DNA from: a virus
Taxonomy: Duplodnaviria; Heunggongvirae; Uroviricota; Caudoviricetes
Virus record (IMG/VR): IMGVR_UViG_2609459791_000004
Span: 1 to 19,614 of that record
Direction: 5' to 3' (one strand)
DNA: 19,614 bases
The translations under genes were made by a program, and so were the position numbers. Positions within the stretch are counted from its first letter, which is position 1. Every line of letters begins with the position of its first letter. This document shows, piece by piece, positions 1,843 to 19,614 of this stretch. The notes beneath the pieces were generated by a model. That model made no database searches. It worked only from the letters and a program-made list of their open reading frames with translations, and was not told where the DNA came from.

Positions 1843-2401
1843 AATAAAGTTCCTCTAATGGTAGAGTAATATGATGTATACGGAAACATAAAAATGTTTA
1901 ATTGTTGTGAAAGTAATTGCAAACAGATGTCCTACTTTTATCCAATATTTATATGGAAAAGGATAATGCTTAAATCTGTTTTATTAATTATCGATGTGGT
2001 CTGGAGAGGCAACTGTCAAAAATCGCTCATACGAAACTAATGATTAGCAGAATAAGATCTATGAAAGAATATATTGCTATACGAAGTTTATTTTTATGGA
2101 GTGAAAAGTAACAGATATCATAATGATGCGAAAACTCTTCAGCTAATGTAATAAAGTTATATTATTAGATACAAAATCATTACAAAGTATCATTGAATCG
2201 ATGATAACTATAGATAGTGCTAATTATAAACATTTGCTTGTTGACTGCGAGTATCGACTTTGCGAATGGAGGCGGTGTCGGGTTTTATGTCGCGTGTAAT
2301 CACGACCCAAGGTGAATGGGAACGCATAAAAATCTGTTATTTACATCATATGATCATCATGTTTATTGCGTGGTTTATAAGTATTGTTATTGCACACTCA
2401 A

Positions 2402-2477
2402 GGCCCTTTAGCTCAGTGGTTAGAGCAGGCGACTCATAATCGCTTGGTCGCTGGTTCAAGTCCAGCAAGGGCCACCA
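2402..2477 (+). tRNA. tRNA with CAU anticodon, Ile2 (lysidine) type rather than Met
   Basis: 76-nt cloverleaf read directly: acceptor GGCCCTT/AAGGGCC, D-arm GCTC-AGTGGTTA-GAGC, anticodon loop CTCATAA (anticodon CAT), T-arm GCTGG-TTCAAGT-CCAGC, discriminator A and encoded CCA. Matches my recollection of E. coli ileX/ileY rather than metT or initiator tRNA. The ORF-track frame starting at 2384 reads through it and is an artifact. Confidence 0.88.
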
Positions 2478-3556
2478 AATCATTATTTACGTATCAGGAA
2501 GAGTTAAGGGTACAAGGGGTACTGGCGGACGTTAAAGCCCAGCCCTCCCATATCAGCAAGCCGCTGATGCAACGTATTGAATACTTCAGCAGCCTGGGCA
2601 GGCCAAAGGCTTATTCCCGCTATTTGCGTGAGACGATTAAGCCATGTCTGGAACGACTGGAGCATGTACGCGACAGTCAGCTATCCACTTCTTTTCGCTT
2701 TATGGCAAGCCATGAAGGGCTGGACGGCCTGCTGATCCTGCCTGAAATGAGTCAGGATCAGGTGAAACGCCTGTCTACTCTTGTCGCTGCGCATATGAGC
2801 ATGTGTCTTGATGCCGCTTGTGGTGATTTGTACGCCACCGATGATGTTAAGCCAGAAGAAATCCGCAAGACATGGGAAAAGGTGGCAGCAGAAACCCTGC
2901 GACTGGATGTCATACCGCCTGCGTTTGAGCAACTCCGCCGGAAAAGAAACCGCCGTAAACCCGTGCCCTATGAACTCATTCCGGGTTCGCTGGCGCGTAT
3001 GTTGTGCGCCGACTGGTGGTACCGGAAATTATGGAAGATGCGTTGCGAATGGCGGGAAGAGCAGTTGCGTGCTGTTTGCCTGGTCAGCAAAAAAGCATCT
3101 CCCTATGTCAGCTATGAAGCCGTGATGCATAAACGTGAGCAGCGCCGTAAGTCGCTGGAGTTTTTCCGTTCTCATGAACTGGTGAACGAAGACGGCGACA
3201 CGCTGGACATGGAGGATGTGGTAAACGCCAGCAGCAGCAACCCTGCGCATCGCCGCAATGAGATGATGGCCTGTGTTAAAGGTCTGGAGCTTATCGCGGA
3301 AATGCGCGGTGACTGCGCCGTTTTCTACACCATCACCTGTCCGTCACGTTTCCATTCCACGCTAAATAACGGCAGGCCCAACCCGACCTGGACAAATACG
3401 ACGGTAAGACAAAGCAGTGATTATCTGGTCGGCATGTTTGCTGCATTTCGTAAGGCGATGCACAAAGCCGGATTGCGCTGGTATGGCGTGCGGGTGACCG
3501 AAGTGCTGGAATGGCGGTATAAAGCGATTCAGAGAAGCGGGGCCAACGATGAGTGA
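2478..3556 (+). pseudogene. phage rolling-circle replication protein (P2/186 gene A-like) fragment, abutting the tRNA and running into the tape-measure start
   Basis: Open frame continues from the tRNA to 3556 with no credible start or RBS; first in-frame ATG is at 2567. Contains [14 protein letters not shown], which resembles Rep motif 1 of the phage GPA family from memory, but no HUH or active-site Tyr region follows. Its stop overlaps the tape-measure ATG, so the 3' part may derive from another gene (for example E'). Identity is from recalled motifs only. Confidence 0.35.
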
Positions 3557-5901: not shown

Positions 5902-6383
5902 TGATGGTGCTGGGATTGTACGTGTTTATGCTGCGCACCGTTCCGTATCAGGAACTGCAGTATCAACGCAGCTGGCGACATGCGGCAAACAGTCGGGTAA
6001 ACCGACGTCCGTCCACGCAGTTTCTGGGACCGGAAAACGACATGCTGACGCTTTCCGGTGTTCTTATGCCGGAGATAACAGGCGGCAGGCTGTCGTTGCT
6101 GGCACTGGAGCAGATGGCAGAACAGGGGAAAGCGTGGCCCCTGATTGAAGGCAGTGGCACGATTTACGGTATGTATGTGATTGAGGGACTGAATCAGACT
6201 AAAACGGAGTTTTTCCGCGATGGTATGCCGCGCCGGATTGAGTTTACCCTGTCGCTCAAACGGGTGGATGAATCCCTGTCCGATATGTTCGGTGATCTCA
6301 GTGCGCAGCTGAATAATTTGCAGGATACGGCAACGTCTGCCTTAAGCGATATCAGTAAAACGGTGGGAGGGCTGCTGTCGTGA
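5898..6383 (+). CDS. P2-like tail protein U
   Basis: 161-aa ORF whose ATG overlaps the tape-measure stop (ATGA). Size and position between T and D match the P2 T-U-D order. Confidence 0.75.
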   Translation: MMMVLGLYVFMLRTVPYQELQYQRSWRHAANSRVNRRPSTQFLGPENDMLTLSGVLMPEITGGRLSLLALEQMAEQGKAWPLIEGSGTIYGMYVIEGLNQTKTEFFRDGMPRRIEFTLSLKRVDESLSDMFGDLSAQLNNLQDTATSALSDISKTVGGLLS

Positions 6384-7480
6384 ATTTCAGCTCTGAACTG
6401 CTTAACAAAGGCAACAAAACTCCGGCATTCAGCATCAGTATTGAAGGCAGGGATATCACTACTGTGCTGGACAACCGCCTGATGGGGCTTACGCTGACGG
6501 ATAACCGGGGCTTTGAAGCGGACCAGCTTGATCTGGAGCTGGACGACGCCGATGGAAAAATCGTGCTGCCGCGCCGTGGTGCGGTCATTACGCTGGCGCT
6601 GGGCTGGAAGGGGCAGCCGCTTTTCCCGAAAGGGGCATTCACGGTGGACGAGATTGAACACACTGGCGCACCGGACCGCCTGACTATCCGGGCGCGAAGT
6701 GCTGATTTTCGTGAAACACTGAATACCCGCCGTGAAAAATCGTGGCATAAGACCACCGTCGGGGAAGTGGTGAAGGAAATAGCCGCGCGGCACAAGCTGA
6801 AGATGGCACTGGGTAAAGACCTGTCGGATAAGCCAGTGGAGCATATAGACCAGACTAATGAGAGTGACGGCAGTTTTCTGATGCGGCTGGCGCGACAGTA
6901 CGGTGCCATCGCGTCGGTGAAAAATGGCAATCTGTTATTCATCCGGCAGGGGCAGGGCAAAAGCGCCACTGGTAAACCTCTGCCAGTGATCACTATCACA
7001 CGCAAGGACGGCGACAGTCACCGATTTACCCTGGCAGATCGCGGAGCTTACACGGGCGTAATTGCCAGCTGGTTGCATACCCGCGAACCCGCGAAGAAAG
7101 AAAGCACCGCGGTGAAGCGTAAGCGCAGGACTAAGAAGCAGAAGAAAGAGCCGGAAACGAAGCAGGGCGATTATCTGGTGGGTACGGATGAAAACGTGCT
7201 GGTACTTAATCGCACCTATGCTAATCGGAGTAACGCCGAACGGGCAGCGAAAATGCAGTGGGAACGCCTGCAACGCGGCGTTGCGTCATTCTCGCTACAA
7301 CTGGCGGAAGGGCGGGCAGATCTCTACACGGAAATGCCAGTGAAAGTCAGTGGCTTTAAACAGCCGATAGATGATGCGGAATGGACCATTACGACTCTGA
7401 CGCATACCGTCAGCCCCGATAACGGTTTTACAACCAGTATTGAACTCGAAGTGAAGATTAATGATCTTGAAATGGAATAA
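6380..7480 (+). CDS. P2-like late tail protein D
   Basis: 366-aa ORF with GTG start overlapping the U stop. Position directly upstream of ogr matches the P2 order, and size is close to P2 gpD. Confidence 0.78.
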   Translation: MNFSSELLNKGNKTPAFSISIEGRDITTVLDNRLMGLTLTDNRGFEADQLDLELDDADGKIVLPRRGAVITLALGWKGQPLFPKGAFTVDEIEHTGAPDRLTIRARSADFRETLNTRREKSWHKTTVGEVVKEIAARHKLKMALGKDLSDKPVEHIDQTNESDGSFLMRLARQYGAIASVKNGNLLFIRQGQGKSATGKPLPVITITRKDGDSHRFTLADRGAYTGVIASWLHTREPAKKESTAVKRKRRTKKQKKEPETKQGDYLVGTDENVLVLNRTYANRSNAERAAKMQWERLQRGVASFSLQLAEGRADLYTEMPVKVSGFKQPIDDAEWTITTLTHTVSPDNGFTTSIELEVKINDLEME

Positions 7481-7548
7481 AGTGTTCTCAATATTGATAT
7501 TTTTTGTATCATTACAATGATTCTGATAGCAAAGGTAGGGATCTGGAT

Positions 7549-7767
7549 ATGATGAATTGTCCAAAGTGTGGTCATGCGGCACACACAAGGAGCAGTTTTC
7601 AAGTAACTGAAAGCACCAAAGAGCGTTACTGCCAGTGCCAAAATATTAACTGCGGGAGCACTTTTGTTACTCATGAAACAGTGGTCCGGTTTATTGTGAC
7701 ACCCGCACTGATTGCTACTGCTCCTCCACATCCATTGCCAGGTGGTCAGGGGCATATGAATTTTTGA
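7549..7767 (+). CDS. ogr: Ogr/Delta-family zinc-finger late transcription activator
   Basis: 72-aa product MMNCPKCGHAAHTRSSFQVTESTKERYCQCQNINCGSTF with the CxxC-N22-CxxxxC zinc finger of P2 Ogr. GGTAGGG Shine-Dalgarno about 8 nt upstream of the ATG at 7549. The ORF-track start at 7504 (TTG) is probably too long. Confidence 0.85.
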   Translation: MMNCPKCGHAAHTRSSFQVTESTKERYCQCQNINCGSTFVTHETVVRFIVTPALIATAPPHPLPGGQGHMNF

Positions 7768-7774
7768 GAAAGAG

Positions 7775-7797
7775 AACCTGCTACGGCAGGTTTTTAT
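7775..7797 (+). terminator. rho-independent terminator downstream of ogr
   Basis: Hairpin CCTGC-tacg-GCAGG followed by TTTTTATT, starting 8 nt after the ogr stop. Confidence 0.7.
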
Positions 7798-7907
7798 TCA
7801 TCTGGGATCTCACCCGTTTCAAGAAAATGTATAAAGCCAGGCTCATCTATGATGATTGTGCCTTTCATCCTGGCTGCCGATACTTTTGATGGGCCTGCAT
7901 TGTAACC

Positions 7908-8285
7908 TCAACAGAGCATCTGAAGGCTTTGGGTTATAGAGGTTCTTACCGTTAATCCTTGTTCATTCGCCTTATCAACCAATCTTTCTTTATCTGCTTT
8001 CTTAAATCCGGTGAAACACACATCGAATGTATTTTTTTTCGGACCAGACTGCTTAGTGAGATGTGAGTAGCTTTCGGGGAGGAATGACGCGCATTCCTGA
8101 ATGGCTTGTTCTGGTGAATCGTACTGTTTAAGAATGCGGTCTTTTCGGAAGGTTTTTATTCGATCGGTGTTCTTACAAATGCCCTGTATATGATTTTCGC
8201 TATAACTGATGCTCTGTATAGAGTGAACAGCGATACGACCATTTGCATTGATGTAAACAAAGTGAAGTTCTTCCATGTGAAACAT
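7908..8285 (-). CDS. hypothetical protein with WYL-like N-terminal region and a truncated BRCT-like C-terminal segment
   Basis: 125-aa ORF in AT-rich DNA. N-terminal FVYINANGRIAVHSIQSIS...RIKTFRKDRI resembles the WYL-domain RxFRxDRI signature. C-terminal FDVCFTGFKKADKERLVDKANEQGLTV looks like the start of a BRCT fold but stops early. No clear Shine-Dalgarno. Confidence 0.35.
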   Translation of the reverse strand: MFHMEELHFVYINANGRIAVHSIQSISYSENHIQGICKNTDRIKTFRKDRILKQYDSPEQAIQECASFLPESYSHLTKQSGPKKNTFDVCFTGFKKADKERLVDKANEQGLTVRTSITQSLQMLC

Positions 8286-8363
8286 CTTTGCATGATTTCA
8301 AGATGGTGACAGGCAAGATGGACGCAAAAGTCTGTCGCCATTTTGCCGCCACTACCAAAGAAA

Positions 8364-8398
8364 AAGGGGCTACGCTTTCACGTAACCCCTTGATTTAT
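8364..8398. terminator. bidirectional hairpin flanked by A/T runs
   Basis: GGGGCTACG-ctttca-CGTAACCCC (9-bp stem, one mismatch) with AAAAA on the 5' side and TTGATTTATTT on the 3' side. Confidence 0.4.
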
Positions 8399-8421
8399 TT
8401 GGTGGGCTGGCGGAGTCTGAA
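8399..8421 (-). other. candidate attR core of the P4-like element: degenerate copy of the 3' end of the tmRNA gene ssrA
   Basis: Plus strand TTGGTGGGCTGGCGGAGTCTGAA resembles the reverse complement of the ssrA 3' end as I recall it (TGGTGGAGCTGGCGGGAGTTGAA) with two 1-nt gaps and one mismatch. It lies just outside the crr-like iterons, at the end of the element opposite an IntA-like integrase. From memory only, no alignment run. Confidence 0.3.
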
Positions 8422-8583
8422 TAACTCACGTAAATATCTGTTAATAGGTGGCTTTAACCAATTCAACTTTCTTCGGTATACCTAAGCGTATACCAATGGC
8501 GATTTGTTGCAGCGCTTCCTGTGATTAAGAGAACCTGTTTTTGGATAAATCACATCTAGAAAAAAACTTTTTTTTAGAAAAAC

Positions 8584-8675
8584 TGTTCACACTGTTCACT
8601 GTGCATTTTTATTTATAAAATTCATGACATTACGGGGTGAATGGTTGGTGAACAGTGAACACTTTACTGTTCATT
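8584..8675. repeat. iteron cluster resembling P4 crr (cis replication region), with adjacent A/T tract
   Basis: TGTTCAC at 8584-8590 and 8594-8600; GGTGAACA at 8647-8654; GTGAACA at 8655-8661; degenerate copies at 8636-8642 and 8668-8675. Both orientations present. Preceded by AAAAAAACTTTTTTTT at 8561-8580. TGTTCACC is, from memory, the P4 type I iteron bound by alpha. Confidence 0.6.
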
Positions 8676-8722
8676 TTACTGGCTCACAGAGGATTACCAT
8701 ACGAATCCTTAAGGACTTGCGG

Positions 8723-9523
8723 TCATTTTCGCCATTCTCTTGTTCCACTAATGTTAGACATCACATCGTCGAAGTTGAATTTTGGATCTGTATCTGGATT
8801 AAATTGGCCATTTTTACTTTCATAAATGAAATTTTGACAATCACAATTGCTGTCACTTTCGCCGCAGTCCATGCATTCAGCATTACAGTAATCTATCATC
8901 CTATCAATGGCATCCCAGGGCTCATAATCGTAGTCGAAATGTCCATAACCACTACTGCCATAAATTCTTCCATTTATGAAGTCGTCAATGTCACTAATAT
9001 TTCTTAACTGGCAGTTGAAAATATTTGATATAGGTCTAAGGACTACCCTCGCATAATCAAATTTGTATAAGGGCATTTCAAAGAAAACCTTACCATTATC
9101 AGCTTTAAGACTGTGAAAAGATAAATCTCCATATTTTTCTATAAGTTCCTTATATCTTTTTTTATCCAGCTCAACATGCTTGAATGAGTTGTTAATCGCA
9201 TCCAAAAGAGAAAACTTATTGCTAATGTGCTTACTCCCATCCACTTCATATCGTTTATCGAAGCTTTTAATAAAATCAGTTCTGGTTATTTCAGTTTTCT
9301 TTTTTGCAATAAATATCATGTAATCAACAACGTGAGCCAAGATTGCGTTAAATGAAAATACATGATGAAGCTTCAGTGTATTGTTGTTTAGTATTGTGAA
9401 AAACTCTTCAGATGCTGGGGTTAAAACATTATCCAAATAAGAAAGGAGATAGCTTGCATCTTTTTCATCGGAGCTGCCTGTGTATAGTTCTATTGCGCTT
9501 CCTTGATGGTTGAGATTTATCAT
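8723..9523 (-). CDS. hypothetical Cys-rich protein, cargo ORF between the crr-like iterons and alpha
   Basis: 266-aa ORF in an AT-rich block inside the GC-rich satellite backbone. C-terminal cluster CNAECMDCGESDSNCDCQ suggests possible metal binding. No family recognised. Confidence 0.55.
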   Translation of the reverse strand: MINLNHQGSAIELYTGSSDEKDASYLLSYLDNVLTPASEEFFTILNNNTLKLHHVFSFNAILAHVVDYMIFIAKKKTEITRTDFIKSFDKRYEVDGSKHISNKFSLLDAINNSFKHVELDKKRYKELIEKYGDLSFHSLKADNGKVFFEMPLYKFDYARVVLRPISNIFNCQLRNISDIDDFINGRIYGSSGYGHFDYDYEPWDAIDRMIDYCNAECMDCGESDSNCDCQNFIYESKNGQFNPDTDPKFNFDDVMSNISGTREWRK

Positions 9524-9689
9524 TAATAACCGCCAGTAAGTTCTATTAATCTGGGAAAATTAACCGTGATAAATGAAGTATAGCGACTTCCTTCATTGCT
9601 ATGCAATCATACGATTGTTTCATTACATTGAATCAATTCTCACTCAGAACTGTATCTTAAATTGTGCATAATGTCTGGACTGAGAGTGC

Positions 9690-9715
9690 AAAAAAAAGAC
9701 CGGCGATTGCCGGTC
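9690..9715 (-). terminator. rho-independent terminator downstream of alpha
   Basis: On the minus strand, hairpin GACCGGC-aatc-GCCGGTC followed by T8, about 10 nt after the alpha stop. Confidence 0.7.
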
Positions 9716-9723
9716 AGGTCAGG

Positions 9724-12057
9724 TTATTTCGCTAGGGGGTCATCACATTTCGGCAGCCAGTCGGCGTTGCTTTCCTCTCTTAACGCGAGATTGGTTTGTA
9801 TGCCCTGATTTTTTCGGCGCTTCTCATAACTTAGCCCGTACTCTTTCAGCATGGCTGGCAGCCCCTTACCGAACATGGTGAGGCTGAGAGTATTCCTGTA
9901 GCCGTGGGCTTCCATATACGCCAGATAGGCATGATACAAATACAGGCGCGGCTGACGCGGAATGATGTTGGCATTGCCAATATACATGCCCTCAGGCTCC
10001 GGCAGTGCCTCCAGATAGCCACAAAAATCAAAGGCCGGATCGGCGTCGCGTTTGATGCTGAGTGCCTCGTCGGAGTTCTGCTGTGACTGGAGCAGGGCAC
10101 GCGCTGTCATCGGGTTGCTGAACTTCTGCATAAGCTGGCGCACAATCACGGCCAGCTCGCGCGCAATTTTATCCCTGAGCTGCGGGTCGCGTTCCTCCGG
10201 GGCAATCTGCTCAGGGAAGTGGATGATTACCCGGCGACGGGAAACACCGCCGCTGCGGTCGGTAAAGCGCATCGGGTTATTGTTCACGGCCAGAATCACC
10301 GCAGGAATATGGGTGGAGTACGCATCCTTGTATTTCGGGTCAACGGAGACCGCATCCCCGCCGGTGATGGCCTTGAGTCCTGCCCCGTCACCGCTCCATT
10401 TCTCCTGGTCAGGCAGACGGATTAGCGAGAAGCCAATCAGCGCAGCACGTTCACGCGGCGACTCCAGCGTTTCGATAGTGGCCGATGTGGCGTTATCTTC
10501 CCCGGCAAGCATGGTCGCAATTTCGGCCAGAATACTTTTTCCGCTGCCACCGGGTCCGGTCACCTCAAGAAAGAGCTGCCAGTCGTAACGGTTCGCCAGC
10601 ACCATAAACAGCGCGGCCAGAATCACGTCGCGTTTTTCCGGTTTGCCACCGGCGGCGCGGTCGAGCCAGCGCCAGAACTCCGGGGCGTGGGTTTCCAGCG
10701 TTTCCCCCTCTACCGGTGGGGTAAAATCGACATCACAGAGTGTGCGCAGCCAGTGCGATTTATGGTGTGGGCTGAAAGTACCCGTGGCGGTATCGAGTAC
10801 TCCGTTACGAAAGCCAATCAGACGCCGTGCCGGGGCATCCTGCTGCGGAATAATCAGTTTCAGGGTCTCCACCACTGAGGCAATTTTCCCCGACGAGAAC
10901 GGTGCGCGCAGACGCTGGAACAACCCGGCCACGTCGCGGGCAAAATCCGACGGCGGAATGATTTTCCATATCCCGGCCTCATAGCGGGACAGGAGCTGGC
11001 CGTTTGCATCCACGGCCAGCGCTTCGCCGTAATGCTCATGCACCCGCATCGCCTTTTCACTGGTGCTCATGGCGGTAAATTCTGCCTCGCTCATGGTAGC
11101 GAAAGGGCTGTCAGCCGGTGGCCGGATGGCGTCATAAATCGCTTTTCGTGTCGCCTCTTCGCCTTTCTGAACAAACGCATCATTCCAGTCACCGAATACC
11201 GGCGGCAGGGCAACAACGCCTTCACAGGCTTCTGCGGCCGCGGCGGCTTTACTCTGACCATCGCCGTTCAGGTCACGGTCGGCGGCGAGGACAATCTGAC
11301 AGGCCGGGTGTTTCTGGCGGACAAGGCTCGCCAGAGAAAGGAGGTTCACGGACGACAGTGCCACCATGACGGTTTCACCGGTCAGGTGATGCACGGTGAG
11401 CGCGGTCGCATAGCCCTCCGCTATCCACAGGCGTTTTCCGGCCTGTTTCTTCCCTTCGATGACATGACATGCTCCTTTAACCTGACCGCCCTTCAGGGTG
11501 CGTTTGAGACCGTCAGAATTGATGAGCTGAAGGTTTACCAGCGCGCCGGTATCGTCATACAGCGGGACAACCACATCCCCGGCGCGGAACGTCACGCCGC
11601 CGGTTTTATGCATGACCGTAAGTACCGGACATTCCCGGTCGGGGAAGCCCTTGCGGGTCAGGTAGGCGTTGCCGCTGGCAGGTTGGGTTTTCTCCATGAG
11701 CCTGACGGTCAGTGCGGCCGCCGCTTTGCGGTCAGCCTCCGTTTCAGCCTCTGCGGCCGCAATCACTTCGGGGGCAACCGGTGGCAGGTTGCCGGTCACG
11801 GCGTCCACCCTCCCGGCAGCCTCTGATGCGGTCACGCCAAACACTTTCTCGACCAGCTTAAGACCGTCACCCGCACCGCACTGGTTACAGAACCACGTCC
11901 CGCGTCCCTCTTTATCGTCAAAGCGGAAACGGTCAGAGCCGCCGCACATCGGGCAGGCCTGATGCCGGTTTTTCATGACCTTCACACCAAGCGCCGGAAG
12001 AATGCGCGGCCAGTGGCCGCACGCCTGTTTTACCGTCTCTGTTACGTTCATTTTCAT
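9724..12057 (-). CDS. P4 alpha-type bifunctional primase-helicase
   Basis: 777 aa, the same length as P4 alpha. N-terminal zinc-binding CPMCGGSD...FCNQC, primase motif EGYATA, Walker A GPGGSGKS. GAGGGAG Shine-Dalgarno upstream of the ATG at 12057. Confidence 0.9.
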   Translation of the reverse strand: MKMNVTETVKQACGHWPRILPALGVKVMKNRHQACPMCGGSDRFRFDDKEGRGTWFCNQCGAGDGLKLVEKVFGVTASEAAGRVDAVTGNLPPVAPEVIAAAEAETEADRKAAAALTVRLMEKTQPASGNAYLTRKGFPDRECPVLTVMHKTGGVTFRAGDVVVPLYDDTGALVNLQLINSDGLKRTLKGGQVKGACHVIEGKKQAGKRLWIAEGYATALTVHHLTGETVMVALSSVNLLSLASLVRQKHPACQIVLAADRDLNGDGQSKAAAAAEACEGVVALPPVFGDWNDAFVQKGEEATRKAIYDAIRPPADSPFATMSEAEFTAMSTSEKAMRVHEHYGEALAVDANGQLLSRYEAGIWKIIPPSDFARDVAGLFQRLRAPFSSGKIASVVETLKLIIPQQDAPARRLIGFRNGVLDTATGTFSPHHKSHWLRTLCDVDFTPPVEGETLETHAPEFWRWLDRAAGGKPEKRDVILAALFMVLANRYDWQLFLEVTGPGGSGKSILAEIATMLAGEDNATSATIETLESPRERAALIGFSLIRLPDQEKWSGDGAGLKAITGGDAVSVDPKYKDAYSTHIPAVILAVNNNPMRFTDRSGGVSRRRVIIHFPEQIAPEERDPQLRDKIARELAVIVRQLMQKFSNPMTARALLQSQQNSDEALSIKRDADPAFDFCGYLEALPEPEGMYIGNANIIPRQPRLYLYHAYLAYMEAHGYRNTLSLTMFGKGLPAMLKEYGLSYEKRRKNQGIQTNLALREESNADWLPKCDDPLAK

Positions 12058-12071
12058 CGTTATTTTCTCCC

Positions 12072-12392
12072 TCAGTGCATGACAGGCGATGTGATATGAC
12101 GGGCACAGAGCTCATCCATCACGGCCAGCCCGAGGAAGGACAGCGACGGGGCAGCTTTCAGTGGTCCGGCTTCCATTAAATCTTCCAGCAGTGCACAGGC
12201 AATCTGGCGGCCTTTTTCCTCGCCGTGCTGGCGCAGGTAGAAGCCCTCCAGCTCGGCGGCAATGGCGCTTTCCAGCGCGTCAAGGGTGAGGTGTGGGTAG
12301 CGGCACTGGCGTTCGCACAGGGTCAGCCATGCACAGGCCACGGCGCGCCGATATAGCGCGGCGCGTAATACGGGCGGTAATGGCTTTTTCAT
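12072..12392 (-). CDS. P4-like left-operon protein (orf upstream of alpha)
   Basis: 106-aa ORF immediately upstream of alpha; its start overlaps the stop of the preceding small ORF by 4 nt. GC-rich backbone composition. Confidence 0.5.
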
Positions 12393-12616
12393 ACGTTGCC
12401 CTCCCCGGTCAGCCAGCGCTGATTGCAGCGCTCTACCACGCCGTCGAGCTGGGCGGTCATAAGGTAAATCACGGAGGTGAGTTGCGACTGCTGTGCAGGG
12501 TCACGACGAACGGTCGCGCAGTCCTGCACCTGCATCAGCTCGTTGACGAGCTGGCCGACGTTGCGCATGTGCTCCAGACATTCGAGGTCACGGGCGCTAA
12601 TCGTGGTGTGTCTCAT
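12389..12616 (-). CDS. small P4-like left-operon protein (possibly Eps or Icd-like)
   Basis: 75-aa ORF with 4-nt overlaps to both neighbouring ORFs (12613-12616 and 12389-12392). Identity is guessed from position only. Confidence 0.4.
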
Positions 12617-12807
12617 GCACGCACCTCCGCAACCGGCAGGCGGCCAGCGAACGAGAGGACGTAATCGCGAACAAGGGAACGACGTGCAGCGTGTTCATCA
12701 CCGGCAACGGTGCGGAGCATACAGATACGGGGTTTACGGTCTGCACGACGAACGGCGGCAAACACAAAAACAAACTGCGGGTGTGACGGGGTGAGGATAG
12801 TAGCCAT
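12613..12807 (-). CDS. small P4-like left-operon protein (64 aa)
   Basis: Internal ATG of the long ORF-track frame, with GGAGG 8 nt upstream; stop overlaps the next ORF. The rest of the 185-aa frame is low-complexity and covers the leader region. Confidence 0.35.
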
Positions 12808-12829
12808 GATGGCAGCCTCCATTGAGTAG

Positions 12830-13015
12830 CGGTTACTGCTACCACCGGAAACGCCAATTTCACTGGTGGCAGCCCGAACGGGGTTGGCGTAACCGGCCTC
12901 AATGGATACCGGCCAGCCCGAAGGCTGCCCCGCCCGGACTACCATTATCTTGCTGGAACCATGGTGTATAAAAAGACACCACAGCCCGGAAAATGGGTGT
13001 GCCTGAGCTACGACG
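12830..13015 (-). ncRNA. candidate P4-type immunity leader (CI RNA and seq-like repeats)
   Basis: Noncoding stretch between the leader terminator and the first small ORF. Repeated AGCCCGAA (12871-12878 and 12915-12922) and GGCGTT(T)CC elements, plus hairpin CAGCC-cgaa-GGCTG. Position matches the P4 cI region. Exact RNA ends not determinable here. Confidence 0.25.
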
Positions 13016-13038
13016 AAAAAAAAGACGCACGGCGCGTC
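13016..13038 (-). terminator. leader terminator downstream of the PLE-like promoter
   Basis: On the minus strand, hairpin GACGC-gccgt-GCGTC followed by T8, about 60-80 nt downstream of the predicted start. Confidence 0.4.
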
Positions 13039-13101
13039 TGGTGTCGCCATTGAGTTTCGCGGAACGCCAATTCCGGCTGTCGATTTTGCGACAGCGGGAA
13101 A

Positions 13102-13131
13102 ACTATACCTGGAAACGGCGAAAAGAAGCAA
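13102..13131 (-). promoter_or_regulatory. sigma70-like promoter, candidate P4 PLE
   Basis: On the minus strand, TTGCTT-N18-TATAGT. A 7-bp stem-loop (GCTGTCG/CGACAGC) lies at the predicted transcript 5' end. Confidence 0.4.
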
Positions 13132-13166
13132 GCCAGAAAAAGGGTCTGTTTGCTGAACGGTCATCA

Positions 13167-13433
13167 TCATGCGTCATAGCCCCGGTTGCGTTCGGCAATA
13201 CGATCCGCCATCCATGCTGTGATTTCAGACTGCGCCCACGCCACGTTTTTTCCGCCCAGGCTGATTTGTTTCGGGAAAGCCTCGCGGCTGATGAGGTCGT
13301 AAATGGTTGACCGGGACAGGCCGCACAGATGCATCACTTCAGGCAGGCGGATAAAGCGCTCCTGAACGGCATCAGAAACCGGCATCAGTGGTGCGGCAGG
13401 GGCAGAAGACGGGGAAGAAAAAGCGGTGTGCAT
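13167..13433 (-). CDS. AlpA/Vis-family DNA-binding regulator or excisionase
   Basis: 88 aa with [32 protein letters not shown], typical of AlpA/Vis HTH proteins. GAGGT Shine-Dalgarno upstream. Confidence 0.8.
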
Positions 13434-13699
13434 CGGGCTACCTCATAATGTCCATACAGTGCCGGTCATGTCCGTCCGGCTTCGGGTAGCTCCTTATTAT
13501 GTCTATATTTTTCCTCAGGTCATGTGAGATTTTCGGGGAAACAAACATTGACTTTTCGCTCTGGCAAACAAAGACAAACGCTGGCAAAGATATGCAAATC
13601 ACTGCATTACAATGCAGCAATTTCTATTGCTTTTAGTTATACATTTTTCATTTTTAATCGAAATAAAATCTAAGTGGTTTGGACAGAGCAAAACAGGAG

Positions 13700-13804
13700 G
13701 GTGAACAGTGGTGAACAGAGGGTGAACAGTCAGACCCTCAACTGTTCACCCTTTATCTTACTGTATTACTTATATTTTTATTTAAGGTGAACAGTGGTGA
13801 ATAG
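13700..13804. repeat. iteron cluster resembling the P4 replication origin
   Basis: GGTGAACA at 13700-13707, 13710-13717, 13721-13728 and 13786-13793; inverted TGTTCACC at 13743-13750; degenerate GGTGAATA at 13797-13804. Includes an 11-bp inverted repeat GGGTGAACAGT-N10-ACTGTTCACCC. Flanked by A/T-rich DNA. Confidence 0.6.
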
Positions 13805-13880
13805 TTATAAGTAAAAAAACAAACGGTGAGTAAGGTTTTGCTGAGACCTTTCTCTGGCCAGCCGGGTTTTAAGTGTTGTT

Positions 13881-13898
13881 TGTGCCAGAACTGCCACA
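13881..13898 (+). promoter_or_regulatory. TGT-N12-ACA element, candidate Delta/Ogr activator site of the sid promoter
   Basis: TGTgccagaactgccACA centred about 81 nt upstream of the sid ATG. P2/P4 late promoters are known to carry a TGT-N12-ACA dyad around -55. Confidence 0.45.
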
Positions 13899-13970
13899 AC
13901 TGCAATGAATCGAGATGTTGTGTGATGAAGGGCAGAATCATTTCAGGTTGAATAAACGGAGAGCCTGAAC

Positions 13971-14714
13971 ATGAAACCCGAAACAGTCATTACCGCCCTG
14001 CAAGACGTTGCCGCCAAGCAGTACGCAGAGAACAGCCAGCACGTCACCGACAAGCTGAGCGTATTTACTGCGGCAAGAGACACCCACGCGGCCAGCATGC
14101 AGGTACTGAAAGAGATTGATACGTCCATTCAACGCTGTAAGCAGGAGCGGCAGACCGCTCTCGATGAGAGCGCAGAAGCGGAGCAGGACTGGCGCAGCCG
14201 CTTTCGCACCCTGCGCGGCAGTCTTACCCCTGAAATGAAAGCTGAGCACAGCAGGCGTATCGCCAGCCGCGAGCTGGCCGACGAGTTCACCAGCCTGATT
14301 GCCGAGCTGGAGGCCGACCGGACGCGCGCCATGCTGACTGCCTGCTCCACCGGCAATAAATACCTTTCAGCGCATGAAGATGCCTTTACCGCTTATGCCG
14401 GTGCGGAATGGGCTCAGGCTGTCAATGCGGTTCCTGTCACCCTCATCCGCGCTTTCCTGCTGCGCATTCGTGCCCTCGAAATGAAGGGAGAAAGCGCCCC
14501 GCAGTCCGTGGCCACTGGCGAGCTGCGCGATGCGCTGAGTCGTCAGGGCAGCCTGTATCACTTCGATATGACGCAGGAGCCGGTGTTGTCCGTGACGGGC
14601 ATGCACCGGCCGCAGATTACAGGCGTGGATACGGAGCTGTTACGCAGCCCTGCGAAGAGAATGATGCTCGCCAGAAAGCTGGCTGAAAATGGCGAGACAG
14701 AAGCGGAGGGGTAA
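13971..14714 (+). CDS. sid: P4 Sid-like capsid size determination protein
   Basis: 247 aa, alpha-helical charged composition, first gene of the sid-delta-psu block. GGAGAG Shine-Dalgarno. Confidence 0.75.
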   Translation: MKPETVITALQDVAAKQYAENSQHVTDKLSVFTAARDTHAASMQVLKEIDTSIQRCKQERQTALDESAEAEQDWRSRFRTLRGSLTPEMKAEHSRRIASRELADEFTSLIAELEADRTRAMLTACSTGNKYLSAHEDAFTAYAGAEWAQAVNAVPVTLIRAFLLRIRALEMKGESAPQSVATGELRDALSRQGSLYHFDMTQEPVLSVTGMHRPQITGVDTELLRSPAKRMMLARKLAENGETEAEG

Positions 14715-14716
14715 GC

Positions 14717-14935
14717 ATGTTTCACTGCCCGTTCTGCAAAACCAGCGCGCATTCCCGCACCAGTCGCTATCTGTCCGATAACGTCAAACAGCGCTATCAC
14801 CAGTGCATGAACATCGAGTGCTCGGCCACGTTCCGCACGCTTGAATCCATCGACGGGGTTATTCGTTCACCGGTAACAGAGCCGGTCATCCCTGTACCCG
14901 CACCGGCGGCCACCGTTAACCGTGCCGGTGCGTAA
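14717..14935 (+). CDS. Delta (Ogr-family zinc-finger late activator), single-domain form
   Basis: 72 aa MFHCPFCKTSAHSRTSRYLSDNVKQRYHQCMNIECSATF with the same Cys spacing as Ogr. Starts 3 nt after the sid stop. Confidence 0.8.
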   Translation: MFHCPFCKTSAHSRTSRYLSDNVKQRYHQCMNIECSATFRTLESIDGVIRSPVTEPVIPVPAPAATVNRAGA

Positions 14936-14963
14936 GCACGGCCAGTCATCAGGAGAAACATAC

Positions 14964-15527
14964 GTGACCACACTGACGCTACAGAAAGCCTTTGAGACCT
15001 GTCAGGCAAACAAATCCGCCTGGCTGCAACGCAGGGAAGAACTGACGCAGGCCGAACAGGCATACCGCGAACAGCTTGCCGGCAGCGGGCACAGCGGCCG
15101 GAGCCTGCAAACGCTACGTGAAATTATTGACGTGAAAAAATGGGAAATTAATCAGGCTGCCGGTCGCTATATCCGCTCGCATGAGGAGGTGCAGCGCATC
15201 AGCATCCGCGACCGATTAAATGATTTTATGCAGGCGCACGGCGCGGAGCTGGCCGCCGCCCTCGCCCCGGAGCTGATGAATTATCCCGGGCAACACCCCG
15301 CCATTCAGCGCTGCGCCATGCAGCACTCACTCGACTGTCTGCGTGAGGCGCTACAGGTCTGGCTGGCCGTTGGTGAAAAAATTAATTATTCGGCGCAGGA
15401 CAATGACATTTTAACGGCCATCGGATTCAGGCCTGACGCGGCTTCGCGCGATGATAGCCGTGAAAAATTCACACCTGCACAGAACCTGAATTACACCCGC
15501 CGTCGTGCAGAACTGGCTGCGCAGTAG
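14964..15527 (+). CDS. psu: P4 Psu-like polarity suppression protein
   Basis: GTG at 14964 preceded by AGGAG with 9-nt spacing, giving about 187 aa, close to P4 Psu. Last gene before the cos-like region. Confidence 0.75.
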   Translation: MTTLTLQKAFETCQANKSAWLQRREELTQAEQAYREQLAGSGHSGRSLQTLREIIDVKKWEINQAAGRYIRSHEEVQRISIRDRLNDFMQAHGAELAAALAPELMNYPGQHPAIQRCAMQHSLDCLREALQVWLAVGEKINYSAQDNDILTAIGFRPDAASRDDSREKFTPAQNLNYTRRRAELAAQ

Positions 15528-15573
15528 TCCTTTCAAAAATCCCCAAAAATCCCGCCATTTTTACGTAAAAAAG

Positions 15574-15600
15574 CCATGCATGCATAAGGTGCATGGTTTT
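15574..15600 (+). terminator. rho-independent terminator after psu
   Basis: Hairpin CCATGCA-tgcataagg-TGCATGG followed by TTTT. Confidence 0.6.
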
Positions 15601-15693
15601 GCATGCGCTTTACCGACACTGTATTCCCCGCCAGCGCCAGCACTGGCGCGCCCTGAGGCCGGTCATGCGCCTGCATTAAAAGCGCCCCCTTAA

Positions 15694-15718
15694 GCGGGCA
15701 GGCGGGGCGGGGAGAGCA
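15694..15718. other. candidate cos site
   Basis: GCGGGCAGGCGGGGCGGGGAGAGCA resembles the P2/P4 19-nt cohesive end as I recall it (GGCGAGGCGGGGAAAGCAC). Sits between psu and the cargo hotspot, where P4 cos lies. Confidence 0.3.
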
Positions 15719-15896
15719 TTGCGCGCCATAGGCTCTTATCATTTATTTGATATATCTTTTTAGAAACTGCGAAACAGACTAAAAAATCATGATCATCCCT
15801 TTGATTTGTAGGTAGAATTCGATCAATAGTATGAGTTGATTGGATGCTGATACAAAAGCTATTTAACTATACATTTGATGTCATGGAGGGGTTATA

Positions 15897-16370
15897 TTGT
15901 TTAAGCGGAAAAATAAAAATTCAGTTCCTTCATTTACACAAGATTTTCATTATCTTACTGCCCTCATTCAGCATTTAGGTGCTCATGAGAAATGGAATAG
16001 CAGAACACCAAGGAATATAGCCGACAGTCTTGGGATGGATATAAATGAAGTCGAAAGAGTTTTGCGGTCATACCCGGCATTCTTCAGGCGGTCGGGAAAC
16101 CTTAGTACTCAAGGAGAACCGCTTTTCATGATTCATTTGCGATATGCGAGAAGAAGACGAAATGCCGATGATGGTTCACGAGAGTCCCCACCTGTTGAAC
16201 CAGCTGAACTAGGTATGATGCTAGATCTTGTTACTAAAATGATTGCAGTGGAAGAGCAAGGTAGGCGGTTGTCAGTTGATGAAAGAAATAACAGTCTTAA
16301 ATTGTGGTTGGCGATATTGCTTGCAGCTATTTCAACATTAACCACCTTGGCTGTAGCATATATAAAATGA
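15897..16370 (+). CDS. small C-terminally membrane-anchored protein with a possible HTH-like segment; first gene of the hotspot operon
   Basis: 157 aa with TTG start 7 nt after GGAGG. C-terminal hydrophobic helix LKLWLAILLAAISTLTTLAVAYI. Segment RNIADSLGMDINEVERVLRS resembles a helix-turn-helix. AT-rich. Confidence 0.55.
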   Translation: MFKRKNKNSVPSFTQDFHYLTALIQHLGAHEKWNSRTPRNIADSLGMDINEVERVLRSYPAFFRRSGNLSTQGEPLFMIHLRYARRRRNADDGSRESPPVEPAELGMMLDLVTKMIAVEEQGRRLSVDERNNSLKLWLAILLAAISTLTTLAVAYIK

Positions 16371-16377
16371 GGTTCAT

Positions 16378-18384
16378 ATGAAATTGATTTCATTCAGGAT
16401 TAAAAATTATCGCTCAATTTTTGATAGTGGGATAATAACGACTGAGAAATTGACGGCAATACTTGGTAGAAATGAAAGTGGAAAGACCAATTTATTATCC
16501 GCACTTTATAGCCTAAAACCAGCAGAGGAATTTAGTGCCCTTGATAAAATTAAAAACTTTCCAAGAAATAGAAGGTTAGAAGAGTGCGATGACTCGACTA
16601 GAGTTGTGGAGTCTACATGGGAGTTAACAGACTCAGAATTAGTTGAGTTAGGACGCATCTACCCAAGAGCAAAAAACAGTAAACAGGTAACTGTAACTAG
16701 AAATTATAGCAAATCTAGACAAGTTGGATTCTCAAAAATTGAACCATTTGACTATGATGCAAATGCGATTAAGAAAAAATTCGGCAAAGTCTTGCTGAAT
16801 ATTGAAAATGCTATAGACGATAATGAATATGATGGAGTAGATAAAGAAACTATTCTAATTCAGTTTCGCAATCTAATCTCTGAGATTTCTCCTGATGACA
16901 ACGAGGGAGTTTTTTCTTGGGCTGGTAAAGTTGGTGAGAAAATTAATGAATTGAATAAGGGTTTTGATAAATATGATTTAGTAATAAAAGAAGATAATGA
17001 GACTTTCATTGACTCTATGAGCGAGTTGATAGTTGGAGTGAAAAATGATGCAGCTTTAAGTCAAAAGGCCAGGGATTGGGTTGTTCAGACCATGCCTGTA
17101 TTTATTTACGTTGATGAATATCCCGAGCTTGAAGGACATCAAAATATTGGGCAATACTTCGAGAGGAAAAGACTTAACAATCAAAGTAAAGCTGATGTGA
17201 ATTTTGATAAGCTATGTAAAGTTGCAGGCATTAAGCCAGAGCAATTGCACGAAAACAAAAATGATCCTGAGGTAAGGAATCAGCTAGCTAACCGTGCAGG
17301 GGCTGTTGTAACACAGGAAATTCATAGATTATGGAAAGATAAACCGCTAAAAATTCGATTCAATCTTGATAATGATTATTTTCATACCTATGTTTCTGAT
17401 CATAACAGTGGATATGATGTTGAAGTAAATCTCGATGAAAGAAGTCGCGGTTTTAAATGGTTCTTCTCTTTCTATATTACATTTTGTGCAGATACACATG
17501 GGGGGGATGCTGAGAATGCAATTATTTTGTTAGATGAGCCCGGCCTATACTTGCATGCTAAATCTCAAGGGGATTTGTTAAATCATCTAATTGATGACTT
17601 TGCTAATCAAATTATATATACAACACATTCACCATTCTTAGTTCCTGTGAAGGATATTTCTGCTATAAAAACTGTTTCGATCTCTGAAGAGGAAGGAACA
17701 AAAGTCACTAATGATCCTAGTGGTGATTCTACAACTTTATTCCCTCTCCAGGCAGCGTTAGGATATGATATTGCTCAGTCGTTATTTATTGGCTCTCATA
17801 ATTTGATTGTAGAGGGTGTAACTGATTATTGGTATATATCGGCATTATCTGAATACCTCATTTCTAAGGGCATGACCGGGCTGAATGACAACATTACAAT
17901 CACTCCTGCTGGAGGAGCACAGAAAGTATCTTACTTAGTATCTTTGCTATCATCCCAAAATCTTAATGTTGTTCTTCTTTTAGACGATGAGAGAAATAGT
18001 CGTCAGACCTCTATAGAAATAGTAAATGGAAAACTGATAGGGCAGAAAAATATTGTCTTTGTATCAGAGGTTCAAAGTGGGGATGTTACAGAGGTTGATA
18101 TTGAGGATCTGTTTGATAAAGAAATGTTCAGAAGACTTATATCAGAGGCCTATTTTCCAGATGTAAGTGAAGAATTAAAGTTTAATGACAAAGTTCCGAG
18201 GATAACTAAGCAAGCTGAAGAGGCTTTGAAACTGCACAAAATGAAATTTGTGAAAGCTAAACCAGCTAGGTTGTTCTTATCTAAATTGAAGGATGCGAAT
18301 GGTGATTTTCTATCTCTTGAAGTAATGAGGAAATTCGAGGCTTTATTTAAAATAATTAATAAAAAGATCTCATCCAAGAAATAG
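16378..18384 (+). CDS. OLD-family ABC-type ATPase fused to a Toprim nuclease domain
   Basis: 668 aa. Walker A GRNESGKTN near the N-terminus after an IKNYRSI beta-strand motif; signature-like DERSRGFKWFFSF; Walker B AIILLDEPGLYLH; His-switch YTTHSP. C-terminal Toprim-like IVEGVTDYWY and LLLDDE. GAGG Shine-Dalgarno 5 nt upstream of the ATG, 7 nt after the upstream stop. Confidence 0.8.
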   Translation: MKLISFRIKNYRSIFDSGIITTEKLTAILGRNESGKTNLLSALYSLKPAEEFSALDKIKNFPRNRRLEECDDSTRVVESTWELTDSELVELGRIYPRAKNSKQVTVTRNYSKSRQVGFSKIEPFDYDANAIKKKFGKVLLNIENAIDDNEYDGVDKETILIQFRNLISEISPDDNEGVFSWAGKVGEKINELNKGFDKYDLVIKEDNETFIDSMSELIVGVKNDAALSQKARDWVVQTMPVFIYVDEYPELEGHQNIGQYFERKRLNNQSKADVNFDKLCKVAGIKPEQLHENKNDPEVRNQLANRAGAVVTQEIHRLWKDKPLKIRFNLDNDYFHTYVSDHNSGYDVEVNLDERSRGFKWFFSFYITFCADTHGGDAENAIILLDEPGLYLHAKSQGDLLNHLIDDFANQIIYTTHSPFLVPVKDISAIKTVSISEEEGTKVTNDPSGDSTTLFPLQAALGYDIAQSLFIGSHNLIVEGVTDYWYISALSEYLISKGMTGLNDNITITPAGGAQKVSYLVSLLSSQNLNVVLLLDDERNSRQTSIEIVNGKLIGQKNIVFVSEVQSGDVTEVDIEDLFDKEMFRRLISEAYFPDVSEELKFNDKVPRITKQAEEALKLHKMKFVKAKPARLFLSKLKDANGDFLSLEVMRKFEALFKIINKKISSKK

Positions 18385-18389
18385 GAACT

Positions 18390-18417
18390 ATGCCCGTCAG
18401 CATGACGGGCATGTTTT
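18390..18417. terminator. hairpin terminator between the convergent hotspot operon and integrase
   Basis: ATGCCCGTC-agcat-GACGGGCAT (9-bp perfect stem) followed by GTTTT, between stops at 18384 and 18421. Confidence 0.6.
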
Positions 18418-18420
18418 AGC

Positions 18421-19614
18421 TTAGTGTATGTTTCTTACCTTTATACCCCACCATTCCATCAGTGATTTTCGTTGTTCTAAGTAAGTGGAACGGTTATATG
18501 CCTTTCTAACTTCATTTTTATCGGAATGAGCCAATGCCGCTTCGATTACATCCGCATTAAAGCCTTGTTCATTTAGGGTTGTACTAGCAATAGATCTTAA
18601 ACCATGCGCAACAAGCTTCCCACCGTAACCAATTCTCTTCAACGCGGCATTAGCTGTTTGACTATTCATCGGTTGCTTTGGATCATTTCTGCTCGGAAAA
18701 ATATGTTCACGATGAGCGCTGATTGGCTTCATCACTTCCAGAATATCTAATGCCTGTGTCGATAGGGGAACAATATGCTCACGCTTGGCCTTCATCCGCT
18801 CGGCTGGAATAGTCCAGAGCTTCGCTTCGAGATCGATCTCTGCCCAACGAGCACCGGAGGCTTCAGAAGGGCGCACAAGGGTCAGAAGTTGCCACTCAAT
18901 AAGACAACGCGTCGGAACAGACAGATTAGACATAACCAAAGAACGCATCAGCTTCGGTAATTCTTCTGGCCGCAGAGTCGGCATGTTTTGTTTTTTTGGT
19001 TTCTCAAATGCCATACCAATTCCTGACGCAGGGTTGGCATCAATCAAACCGGTGTTAACCGCATAAATCATGATCTCGTTTATGCGCTGCACCAGTCGAC
19101 GAACAGTCTCAAGCGCTCCACGAGCCTTGATTGGCTCAAGGGCTTCAACCAGAGTTCGGGCTTTGATTTGCTGAACGGGGATCTCACCGATGGCAGGGAA
19201 TACATCTTTCTCCAGTGAGCGCCAAATGTCTTTTGCGTAATCAGGAGTAACGCTTTTGCTTTTGAGCTGGAACCAGTTAGCGGCGACCGTTGAAAAAATA
19301 CTGTCCAGCTCGATTTGCTGCTGTTCCTCTGCAACTTCAGCCTGAATTTGCGGGTCGATTCCGTTGGCTAGCAAGGCTAGGTAATCCGCTCTCAACCCTC
19401 GGGCATCAGCAAGCGAAAGGGCAGGGAAGGCACCGAGCCCCATCATTGTCCGCTGCTTTGTTGTCGGACGTTGATAACGAAAACGCCAGAGTTTTTTCCC
19501 GCTGGTTTTCACTATCAGGAAAAGCCCATCGCCATCATGCAGCGTTAGATCCTTCTCCAACGCTTTAGCGCGCAGAACTTCGGTGTTGGTCAGGGGGCGT
19601 GTTGTCCGTGCCAC
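18421..19614 (-). CDS. P4-type tyrosine integrase (IntA-like)
   Basis: 397 aa. N-terminus ARTTRPLTNTEV...DGDGLFLIVKTSGKKLWRFRY resembles CP4-57 IntA. C-terminal catalytic residues in HGLRSIASTTL and VRKAYNRSTYLEQR. Apparent GTG start sits on the last three bases of the window, so the true start may lie just outside. Confidence 0.88.
   Translation of the reverse strand: MARTTRPLTNTEVLRAKALEKDLTLHDGDGLFLIVKTSGKKLWRFRYQRPTTKQRTMMGLGAFPALSLADARGLRADYLALLANGIDPQIQAEVAEEQQQIELDSIFSTVAANWFQLKSKSVTPDYAKDIWRSLEKDVFPAIGEIPVQQIKARTLVEALEPIKARGALETVRRLVQRINEIMIYAVNTGLIDANPASGIGMAFEKPKKQNMPTLRPEELPKLMRSLVMSNLSVPTRCLIEWQLLTLVRPSEASGARWAEIDLEAKLWTIPAERMKAKREHIVPLSTQALDILEVMKPISAHREHIFPSRNDPKQPMNSQTANAALKRIGYGGKLVAHGLRSIASTTLNEQGFNADVIEAALAHSDKNEVRKAYNRSTYLEQRKSLMEWWGIKVRNIH

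Follow-up and report, generated by a model that had tools for sequence, protein, structure and literature searches.

A probable immunity switch of P4 type in a satellite prophage: two RNA families, three-way covarying pairing blocks and an open frame that runs through them

Genes and RNA elements of the locus

The DNA analysed here, called the window below, is a stretch of 19,614 nucleotides from a virus of the Caudoviricetes (positions 1 to 19,614 of IMG/VR record IMGVR_UViG_2609459791_000004). Pfam recognises in it the neighbours expected of a P4-like satellite, namely alpha primase, DUF5375 (equivalent to P4 orf106), AlpA/vis, an Ogr/Delta zinc finger, Psu and an integrase; at the position of sid there is a 247-aa frame without a Pfam match. 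The locus under study lies between the vis homologue and the small frames of the left operon, where an earlier note, made from the letters alone, had placed a promoter, a stem-loop, a terminator, short repeats and a tetraloop hairpin. All of these were found again in that interval, all of them on the minus strand, and the region is flanked by homologues of vis and kil. The left boundary drawn by the note, 12830, leaves out the second seqC block and the ribosome-binding site of kil (12826..12816). The genes and RNA elements, in the direction of reading and ending with the replication gene downstream, are as follows.

13167..13433, minus strand: vis, homologue of P4 orf88 in the AlpA family (72% identity to P4 ORF88; Pfam Phage_AlpA, 72.3 bits)
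12613..13170, minus strand: eta-like frame of 185 codons (558 nt), with its start upstream of PLE, extending across the leader, CI and seqC to its end as kil
13102..13131, minus strand: PLE-like promoter (-35 TTGCTT 13131..13126, 18-nt spacer, -10 TATAGT 13107..13102)
13016..13095, minus strand: leader RNA (isrK family; seqA RNA of P4), made up of hairpin 1, hairpin 2 and terminator t1
13095..13076, minus strand: leader hairpin 1, at the predicted transcript start
13076..13060, minus strand: leader hairpin 2, whose loop presents seqA block 1
13016..13039, minus strand: intrinsic terminator, homologue of P4 t1 (AGACGCG-CCG-TGCGTCT and then T8; 7-bp G+C-rich stem, 3-nt loop)
12955..12987, minus strand: conserved hairpin in the spacer from t1 to CI
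12862..12949, minus strand: CI immunity RNA gene (Rfam C4), with a cloverleaf-like fold of about 78 nt at 12944..12867
12841..12827, minus strand: further hairpin downstream of CI
12613..12807, minus strand: kil, a 64-aa Icd-like cell-division inhibitor (NCBIfam phage_ICD_like, 79.6 bits; ATG at 12807)
9724..12057, minus strand: alpha primase (Pfam primase domains)

When the whole window was scanned with Rfam at curated thresholds, three matches were returned: a tRNA, isrK and C4 antisense RNA. The sequence of P4 itself gives the same two matches, isrK and C4, in the same order, and in published work IsrK and C4 are structural homologues of the P4 RNAs that go by the names seqA RNA and CI RNA, respectively (PMC4825925, PMC3632133). 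The minus strand aligns with the PLE-cI region of P4 at 79% mean column identity, and the only phage records to cover most of the region belong to P4; phiR73, a P4-like phage, was not found in the phage collection. The window resembles P4 in the order of parts from vis to kil, the -10 hexamer, the terminator, the CI fold and the through-running frame, whereas its t1 and CI stand 39 nt closer together, and the epsilon (95 aa) and orf151 frames that P4 carries downstream are replaced by one 75-aa frame. This frame (12389..12616, minus strand, between kil and the DUF5375 gene) has no Pfam or NCBIfam match. A copy of the locus that is 100% identical occurs in E. coli MB20 (NZ_CP073976.1, 1114939..1115496; L083), and the segment is matched in 875 of 5426 complete E. 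coli genomes.

Elsewhere in the window, a tRNA-Met gene (CAU) lies at 2402..2477 on the plus strand, roughly 7 kb outside the satellite on its alpha side, and several large frames occupy the interval between 3549 and 9523. At the opposite end the integrase frame (18421..19614) runs off the window. Between psu and the integrase, 16378..18384 on the plus strand encodes a 668-aa protein with AAA_15/AAA_21 ATPase and OLD-like TOPRIM domains, which from its domains and its place looks like an OLD-family nuclease defence gene at a known P4 hotspot position.

The sigma70-like promoter TTGCTT-N18-TATAGT that had been proposed is present, and its hexamers are conserved with the PLE region of P4 and across relatives. 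A generic promoter scan did not list PLE, because the -35 hexamer has only 3 of 6 positions in common with TTGACA and the hexamers fall below the threshold of the scan; conservation is therefore used as the support for this promoter. It is predicted to be active and to fire constitutively. The loci from Pantoea, Erwinia, Mixta and related genera (L070-L082) differ in the -35 region, which reads CTGGCGAGC, and in the eta start, an ATG after GAGGAAAA that lies about 57 nt ahead of the loop of hairpin 1; these loci conserve the leader, CI and seqC.

The stem-loop noticed at the predicted transcript start is hairpin 1 (GCTGTCG-CAAAAT-CGACAGC, 13095..13076), and the hairpin with a T8 run that had been described 60-80 nt downstream occupies nt 57-80 of the predicted transcript and was also returned by the terminator scan. 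The isrK match (RF01394) extends from 13095 to 13018 on the minus strand and over positions 1-77 of the 77 in the model, with 74.5 bits against a gathering threshold of 50 (E = 1.3e-14). The leader folds into three hairpins, two at its 5′ side and the terminator hairpin with its U-run. The folding energy of the leader alone is not unusual in comparison with shuffled sequences (z = -0.8), and the case that the leader is real therefore rests on the Rfam score and on covariation. Stem and T-run of t1 are nearly invariant over 75 related loci, with a single G-C/C-G swap; termination at t1, and its enhancement by CI, are both predicted from P4.

The C4 match (RF01695) covers 12949..12862 on the minus strand and positions 1-87 of the 87 in the model, with 82.9 bits against a gathering threshold of 45 (E = 2.7e-15). 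This 88-nt segment folds as a 17-bp closing stem around two hairpins and an unpaired junction, at -50.6 kcal/mol (z = -4.9 against shuffled sequences), and the minimum-energy fold is the C4 consensus. By the E values for the two halves of the region and the z score of the CI fold, these features go far beyond chance. It was this stretch that the earlier note had described as GC-rich noncoding DNA with short repeats and a tetraloop hairpin. Repeats and tetraloop are there as described: AGCCCGAA has two copies on the plus strand, at 12871 and 12915, and none elsewhere in the window, and the tetraloop hairpin is CAGCC-UUCG-GGCUG (12927..12914, minus strand). Their identity had been missed, for what had been described is the gene of the CI RNA; its first internal hairpin is the one with the tetraloop, and the two AGCCCGAA copies belong to that hairpin and to the 3′ arm of the closing stem. 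The label "noncoding" is moreover inaccurate, because an open frame that is kept across relatives spans the whole region. Processing of CI from the read-through transcript is predicted by analogy with P4.

Pairing blocks and their covariation

Related loci were fetched via an alignment of two Vis proteins, which yielded 80 loci, one genome per species and mostly from Enterobacteriaceae and Erwiniaceae. From these, 75 distinct stretches, each bounded by the transcript start and the ATG of kil, were aligned (alignment A4). Variation in A4 clusters in two short blocks, of which seqA, CI and seqC each contain one copy. The copies in the window, with the hairpin that carries one of them, are given below.

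13064..13070, minus strand: seqA block 1, UUGGCGU, in the loop of leader hairpin 2; pairs with CI 12890..12884
13047..13054, minus strand: seqA block 2, CUCAAUGG; pairs with the loop of CI hairpin 2, 12905..12898
12898..12905, minus strand: CI block 2, CCAUUGAG, in the loop of the second internal hairpin
12884..12890, minus strand: CI block 1, ACGCCAA (core of seqB), in the unpaired junction; covaries with both of its targets
12842..12869, minus strand: seqC hairpin, whose loop presents block 1, UUGGCGU, at 12857..12851
12826..12819, minus strand: seqC block 2, CUCAAUGG (element 12816..12826), overlapping the kil Shine-Dalgarno sequence GGAGG at 12820..12816

Complementarity in the window is perfect at both blocks and at both sites, seqA and seqC. 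In the alignment, all seven positions of seqA block 1 are paired with CI in 74 of 74 distinct sequences, six of the seven pairs being altered on both sides; block 2 of seqA is likewise 100% paired, with 6 of 8 pairs altered on both sides, so that over the whole of CI:seqA 100% of 1110 cells are paired and 12 of 15 pairs have changed on both sides. For CI:seqC, 99.7% of cells are paired and again 12 of 15 pairs are altered on both sides; here block 1 is paired with CI throughout (100%), and block 2 is paired with the CI hairpin-2 loop in 99.5% (6 of 8 pairs altered on both sides). The covariation scores are 0.789 for CI:seqA (shuffled mean 0.227) and 0.778 for CI:seqC (shuffled mean 0.223), and in neither case did any of 500 shuffles reach the score, although this control overstates significance because related loci share ancestry. 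When the partners in CI:seqA were slid against each other by 1-3 columns, at most 48.6% of cells were paired; this control, like the many kinds of pair seen, speaks against shared ancestry as the full explanation of the covariation. With the alignment as its only input, RNAalifold predicts the seqA:CI pairing. The three helices inside CI also have 100% of their cells paired in the 74 distinct sequences, with eight pairs altered on both sides.

These results redraw a part of the earlier picture, in which CI RNA paired with seqA and seqB. Pairing with seqA stands; seqB, by contrast, is a part of CI that targets seqA and seqC (PMC4825925), the latter being the second site that covaries with CI here. 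The sequence GGCGTT(T)CC had been seen twice in the region, and both copies are where they had been reported (GGCGTTCC and GGCGTTTCC, once each on the minus strand; on the plus strand GGAACGCC at 13061 and GGAAACGCC at 12847). As CI pairs with both of them, these repeats are the block-1 targets in seqA and seqC. The second pairing block had been overlooked. In its main claim, that the region is an immunity leader of P4 type with RNA-mediated premature termination, the note is strongly supported by the P4 alignment, the Rfam matches and the vis/kil context, with some of its details wrong or incomplete.

Two further structures are supported by the alignment. The seqC hairpin covaries (A4 columns 262-269 with 290-297), and the 3′ end of the CI closing stem doubles as its 5′ arm, so that a fold rivalling the CI cloverleaf is open to the primary transcript. 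The hairpin in the spacer between t1 and CI (RNAalifold, A4 columns 115-125 with 169-180) has many pairs that are altered on both sides, and it may play a role in processing. A separate candidate, in which seqA block 1 would act as an antiterminator by pairing with the t1 stem, was rejected after comparison with A4, as it fits the block sequence of the window only and not the other classes.

The eta frame and kil

The ATG of the eta-like frame overlaps the vis stop codon by 4 nt (ATGA), and the frame is collinear with that of P4, with 63% identity. In the interval from transcript start to the ATG of kil it contains no stop in 72 of the 75 loci, whereas the other two frames contain stops in 75 of 75, at means of 4.3 and 2.4 per sequence. 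This interval occurs in eight lengths, which are multiples of three in 71 of 75 loci (282, 285, 288, 291 and 330 nt; 321 nt once). The remaining four loci (L019, L043, L062 and L067) measure 281 or 284 nt; three of them have stops in eta, the RNA elements look intact, and these loci may represent either natural eta-null variants or errors of sequencing.

Codon-position entropy separates the parts of the frame. In kil the values for the three positions are 0.48/0.42/1.04, a coding signature, while they are 0.83/0.88/0.93 in the spacer and 0.33/0.41/0.42 in CI. The excess at third positions is thus absent upstream of kil, and protein-like evolution is confined to kil, the last 64 codons. From the open frame and the flat entropy upstream it follows that eta is kept open and that its upstream two-thirds are unconstrained as protein. 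kil is the first gene translated from PLE transcripts and is nested in the eta frame. For P4, the same arrangement has been described: PLE lies inside eta, and full-length Eta is made only from the upstream late promoter, with translation coupled to the vis (alpA) homologue (PMC10111431). According to the same source, translation of Eta prevents termination, and Kil is the truncated form that arises from PLE read-through (PMC10111431, summarising Forti 1999).

The earlier note had judged the 185-aa frame probably not coding. In view of the conserved open frame, with 72 of 75 loci open against none of 75 for the other frames and lengths in multiples of three, and of the report of eta in P4, this judgement is unsupported as it was put; it is right only for the part that overlaps the RNAs, and there in the sense that amino-acid constraint is lacking. 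Pfam Phage_ASH matches residues 22-133 of eta, which is the RNA-overlapping part, and this family appears to be the translation of the RNA region. In the PGAP/RefSeq annotation of the E. coli MB20 copy, the whole 558-nt frame is named "host cell division inhibitor Icd-like protein", and neither of the RNAs is annotated.

Interpretation, specificity and related systems

Every feature of the P4 immunity system that can be tested on sequence is present at the locus, together with both Rfam families, and the region very probably serves a P4-like satellite prophage as its switch for immunity (maintenance of lysogeny), with the minus strand as the one that is read. This reading is based on P4 homology, two RNA families, their folds, the three-way covariation, the terminator, the family of kil and the open frame. 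If the locus were instead a plain protein gene for a 185-aa "Ash" or Icd-like protein, and the RNA structures were incidental, its annotation as one 558-nt CDS with no RNA gene in the identical E. coli copy, the Phage_ASH match and the openness of the frame in 72 of 75 loci would all find their place. We consider this very improbable: the entropies of spacer and CI, set against that of kil, show no third-position excess upstream of kil; the variable blocks change together at three sites in ways that keep their pairing, which is unlike protein constraint; and, with the strong Rfam matches besides, the data agree with a frame in which the act of translation matters and the product does not. Decay into a non-functional remnant is hardly credible either, even though P4-like elements are very common and often degraded and the eta frame is broken in 4 of 75 related loci. 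The parts in the window are intact, from the promoter hexamers and the terminator to a CI fold free of mismatches and perfect complementarity at the four target blocks; the frames of eta, kil, vis, alpha, psu, delta and the integrase are intact as well, and another genome carries a 100% identical copy.

The leader might also be mainly a trans-acting small RNA that, like IsrK of Gifsy-1, activates a downstream frame on read-through transcripts and is not only a target of CI. Its full-length match to the isrK model speaks for this, and so do two reports: the short IsrK of Gifsy-1 acts in trans on the long isoform (PMC4825925), and a transposon screen of Salmonella Typhi found the IsrK-like elements of P4-like prophages to be required (PMC3632133). 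The two variable blocks of the leader, however, covary perfectly with CI, which marks the leader as a partner of CI, and on the long transcript RNAalifold gave no site complementary to the leader other than CI. As the main function such a role is unlikely; as an additional one it could be compatible with the immunity switch.

For the immunity switch, the course of events can be proposed on the model of P4, whose details concerning t1, t4 and timm are taken here from secondary summaries. PLE, inside the eta frame, would fire constitutively as in P4, and the first 80 nt of its transcript would form two hairpins and t1. Most transcripts would stop at t1, a terminator plainly present in the DNA, and leave the 80-nt leader. 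From transcripts that pass t1, an RNA of about 78 nt with a cloverleaf-like fold would be excised as the stable CI RNA. In P4, CI is released from the primary transcript by RNase P and PNPase, and Rho-dependent termination occurs at timm. CI would expose two blocks, ACGCCAA in its junction and CCAUUGAG in a hairpin loop, each of which has a complement in the leader (seqA) and another before kil (seqC). Pairing of CI with seqA, to which the covariation points, would increase termination at t1 and thereby provide feedback on CI synthesis; in P4 this pairing reportedly raises termination at t1, with autoregulation as the outcome. Pairing with seqC would block the translation of kil and cause termination ahead of the replication genes from kil to alpha. 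As block 2 of seqC covers the ribosome-binding site of kil, kil would stay untranslated and transcription would halt before the replication genes; with these blocked by CI, the prophage would be silent, and incoming satellites with the same blocks would be repressed. Transcripts from the upstream late promoter would be translated from the eta start, coupled to vis, and ribosomes on them would override the RNA control, as P4 suggests.

The blocks that mediate this pairing fall into classes. There are six variants of block 1 and about ten of block 2, in 25 combinations among the 75 loci, and the combination of the window, ACGCCAA with CCAUUGAG, is the commonest (12 of 75 loci). P4 has GUGAGAA:UUCUCAC at block 1, where the window has UUGGCGU:ACGCCAA, and UUCACAGG:CCUGUGAA at block 2, where the window has CUCAAUGG:CCAUUGAG. 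Duplex energies were calculated between the accessible part of CI and the leader. Their mean is -32.3 kcal/mol for cognate pairs, -27.7 kcal/mol when block 1 alone is shared, -23.4 kcal/mol when block 2 alone is shared and -20.7 kcal/mol when neither is. CI of the window gives -29.6 kcal/mol with its own seqA and -20.3 kcal/mol with that of P4. Because the predicted cross-pairing is weaker and both blocks are unlike those of P4, the window and P4 should be heteroimmune, a prediction from sequence.

This may amount to a specificity code of two modules, in which the blocks reassort freely and the three copies of each change in concert; to this would belong that the specificity of the window is experimentally uncharacterised and that eta is open for the ribosomes only. 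We hold this extension to be evenly balanced between acceptance and doubt. Free reassortment of the blocks in 25 combinations would imply that many mutually heteroimmune satellites can coexist. In genomes with two typed loci, which were matched by hand, the block combinations appear to differ, a count that is uninformative because a difference is expected for about 93% of random pairs.

RNA immunity of P4 type is a well-described system; the window is a common variant of it, and the accepted mechanism is unchanged. In type I toxin-antitoxin systems, too, a small antisense RNA hides the ribosome-binding site for a short protein that is toxic, and overexpression of Kil is said to kill cells in P4. 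CI, however, comes from the same transcript, upstream of the toxin, and not from the opposite strand, and unlike a type I antitoxin it also controls transcription termination of the whole operon. With immI of P1 and P7 (c4, icd, ant), the window shares the Rfam C4 family and an Icd-like first downstream gene. In P1, c4 reportedly pairs through two short blocks (a′ and b′) with an upstream and a downstream copy of its target, and the downstream copy is said to cover the ribosome-binding site of icd. P1 controls an antirepressor, whereas the window has a satellite context with replication genes and no ant gene. The module of RNA plus Icd is also found in P1-type and some lambdoid phages. The stretch from CI to the start of kil (12789..12948) has matches of 71-75% identity in Stx1a/Stx2a-converting phages (e.g. 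LC567819.1), phiP27 and RCS47, in which genes for "antirepressor Ant" adjoin, and these sequence matches are consistent with a shared module of the c4-icd-ant type. With IsrK of Gifsy-1, the leader of the window has in common the design of a short terminated RNA with a read-through isoform (PMC4825925). The short RNA of Gifsy-1 activates translation of orf45 and anrP in trans, whereas a P4-type leader is described as the target of CI, and downstream of it the window has no antiterminator gene.

The points added here are modest, namely the table of two-block, three-copy covariation and the evidence that the upstream part of eta is open but unconstrained. Present genome annotation offers one Icd-like protein gene at this locus and omits the CI and leader RNAs. 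The table of pairing blocks could be used to type immunity groups of satellites straight from sequence. The locus decides whether the satellite is silent and which related satellites are excluded, and this is of importance for predicting the behaviour of very common elements.
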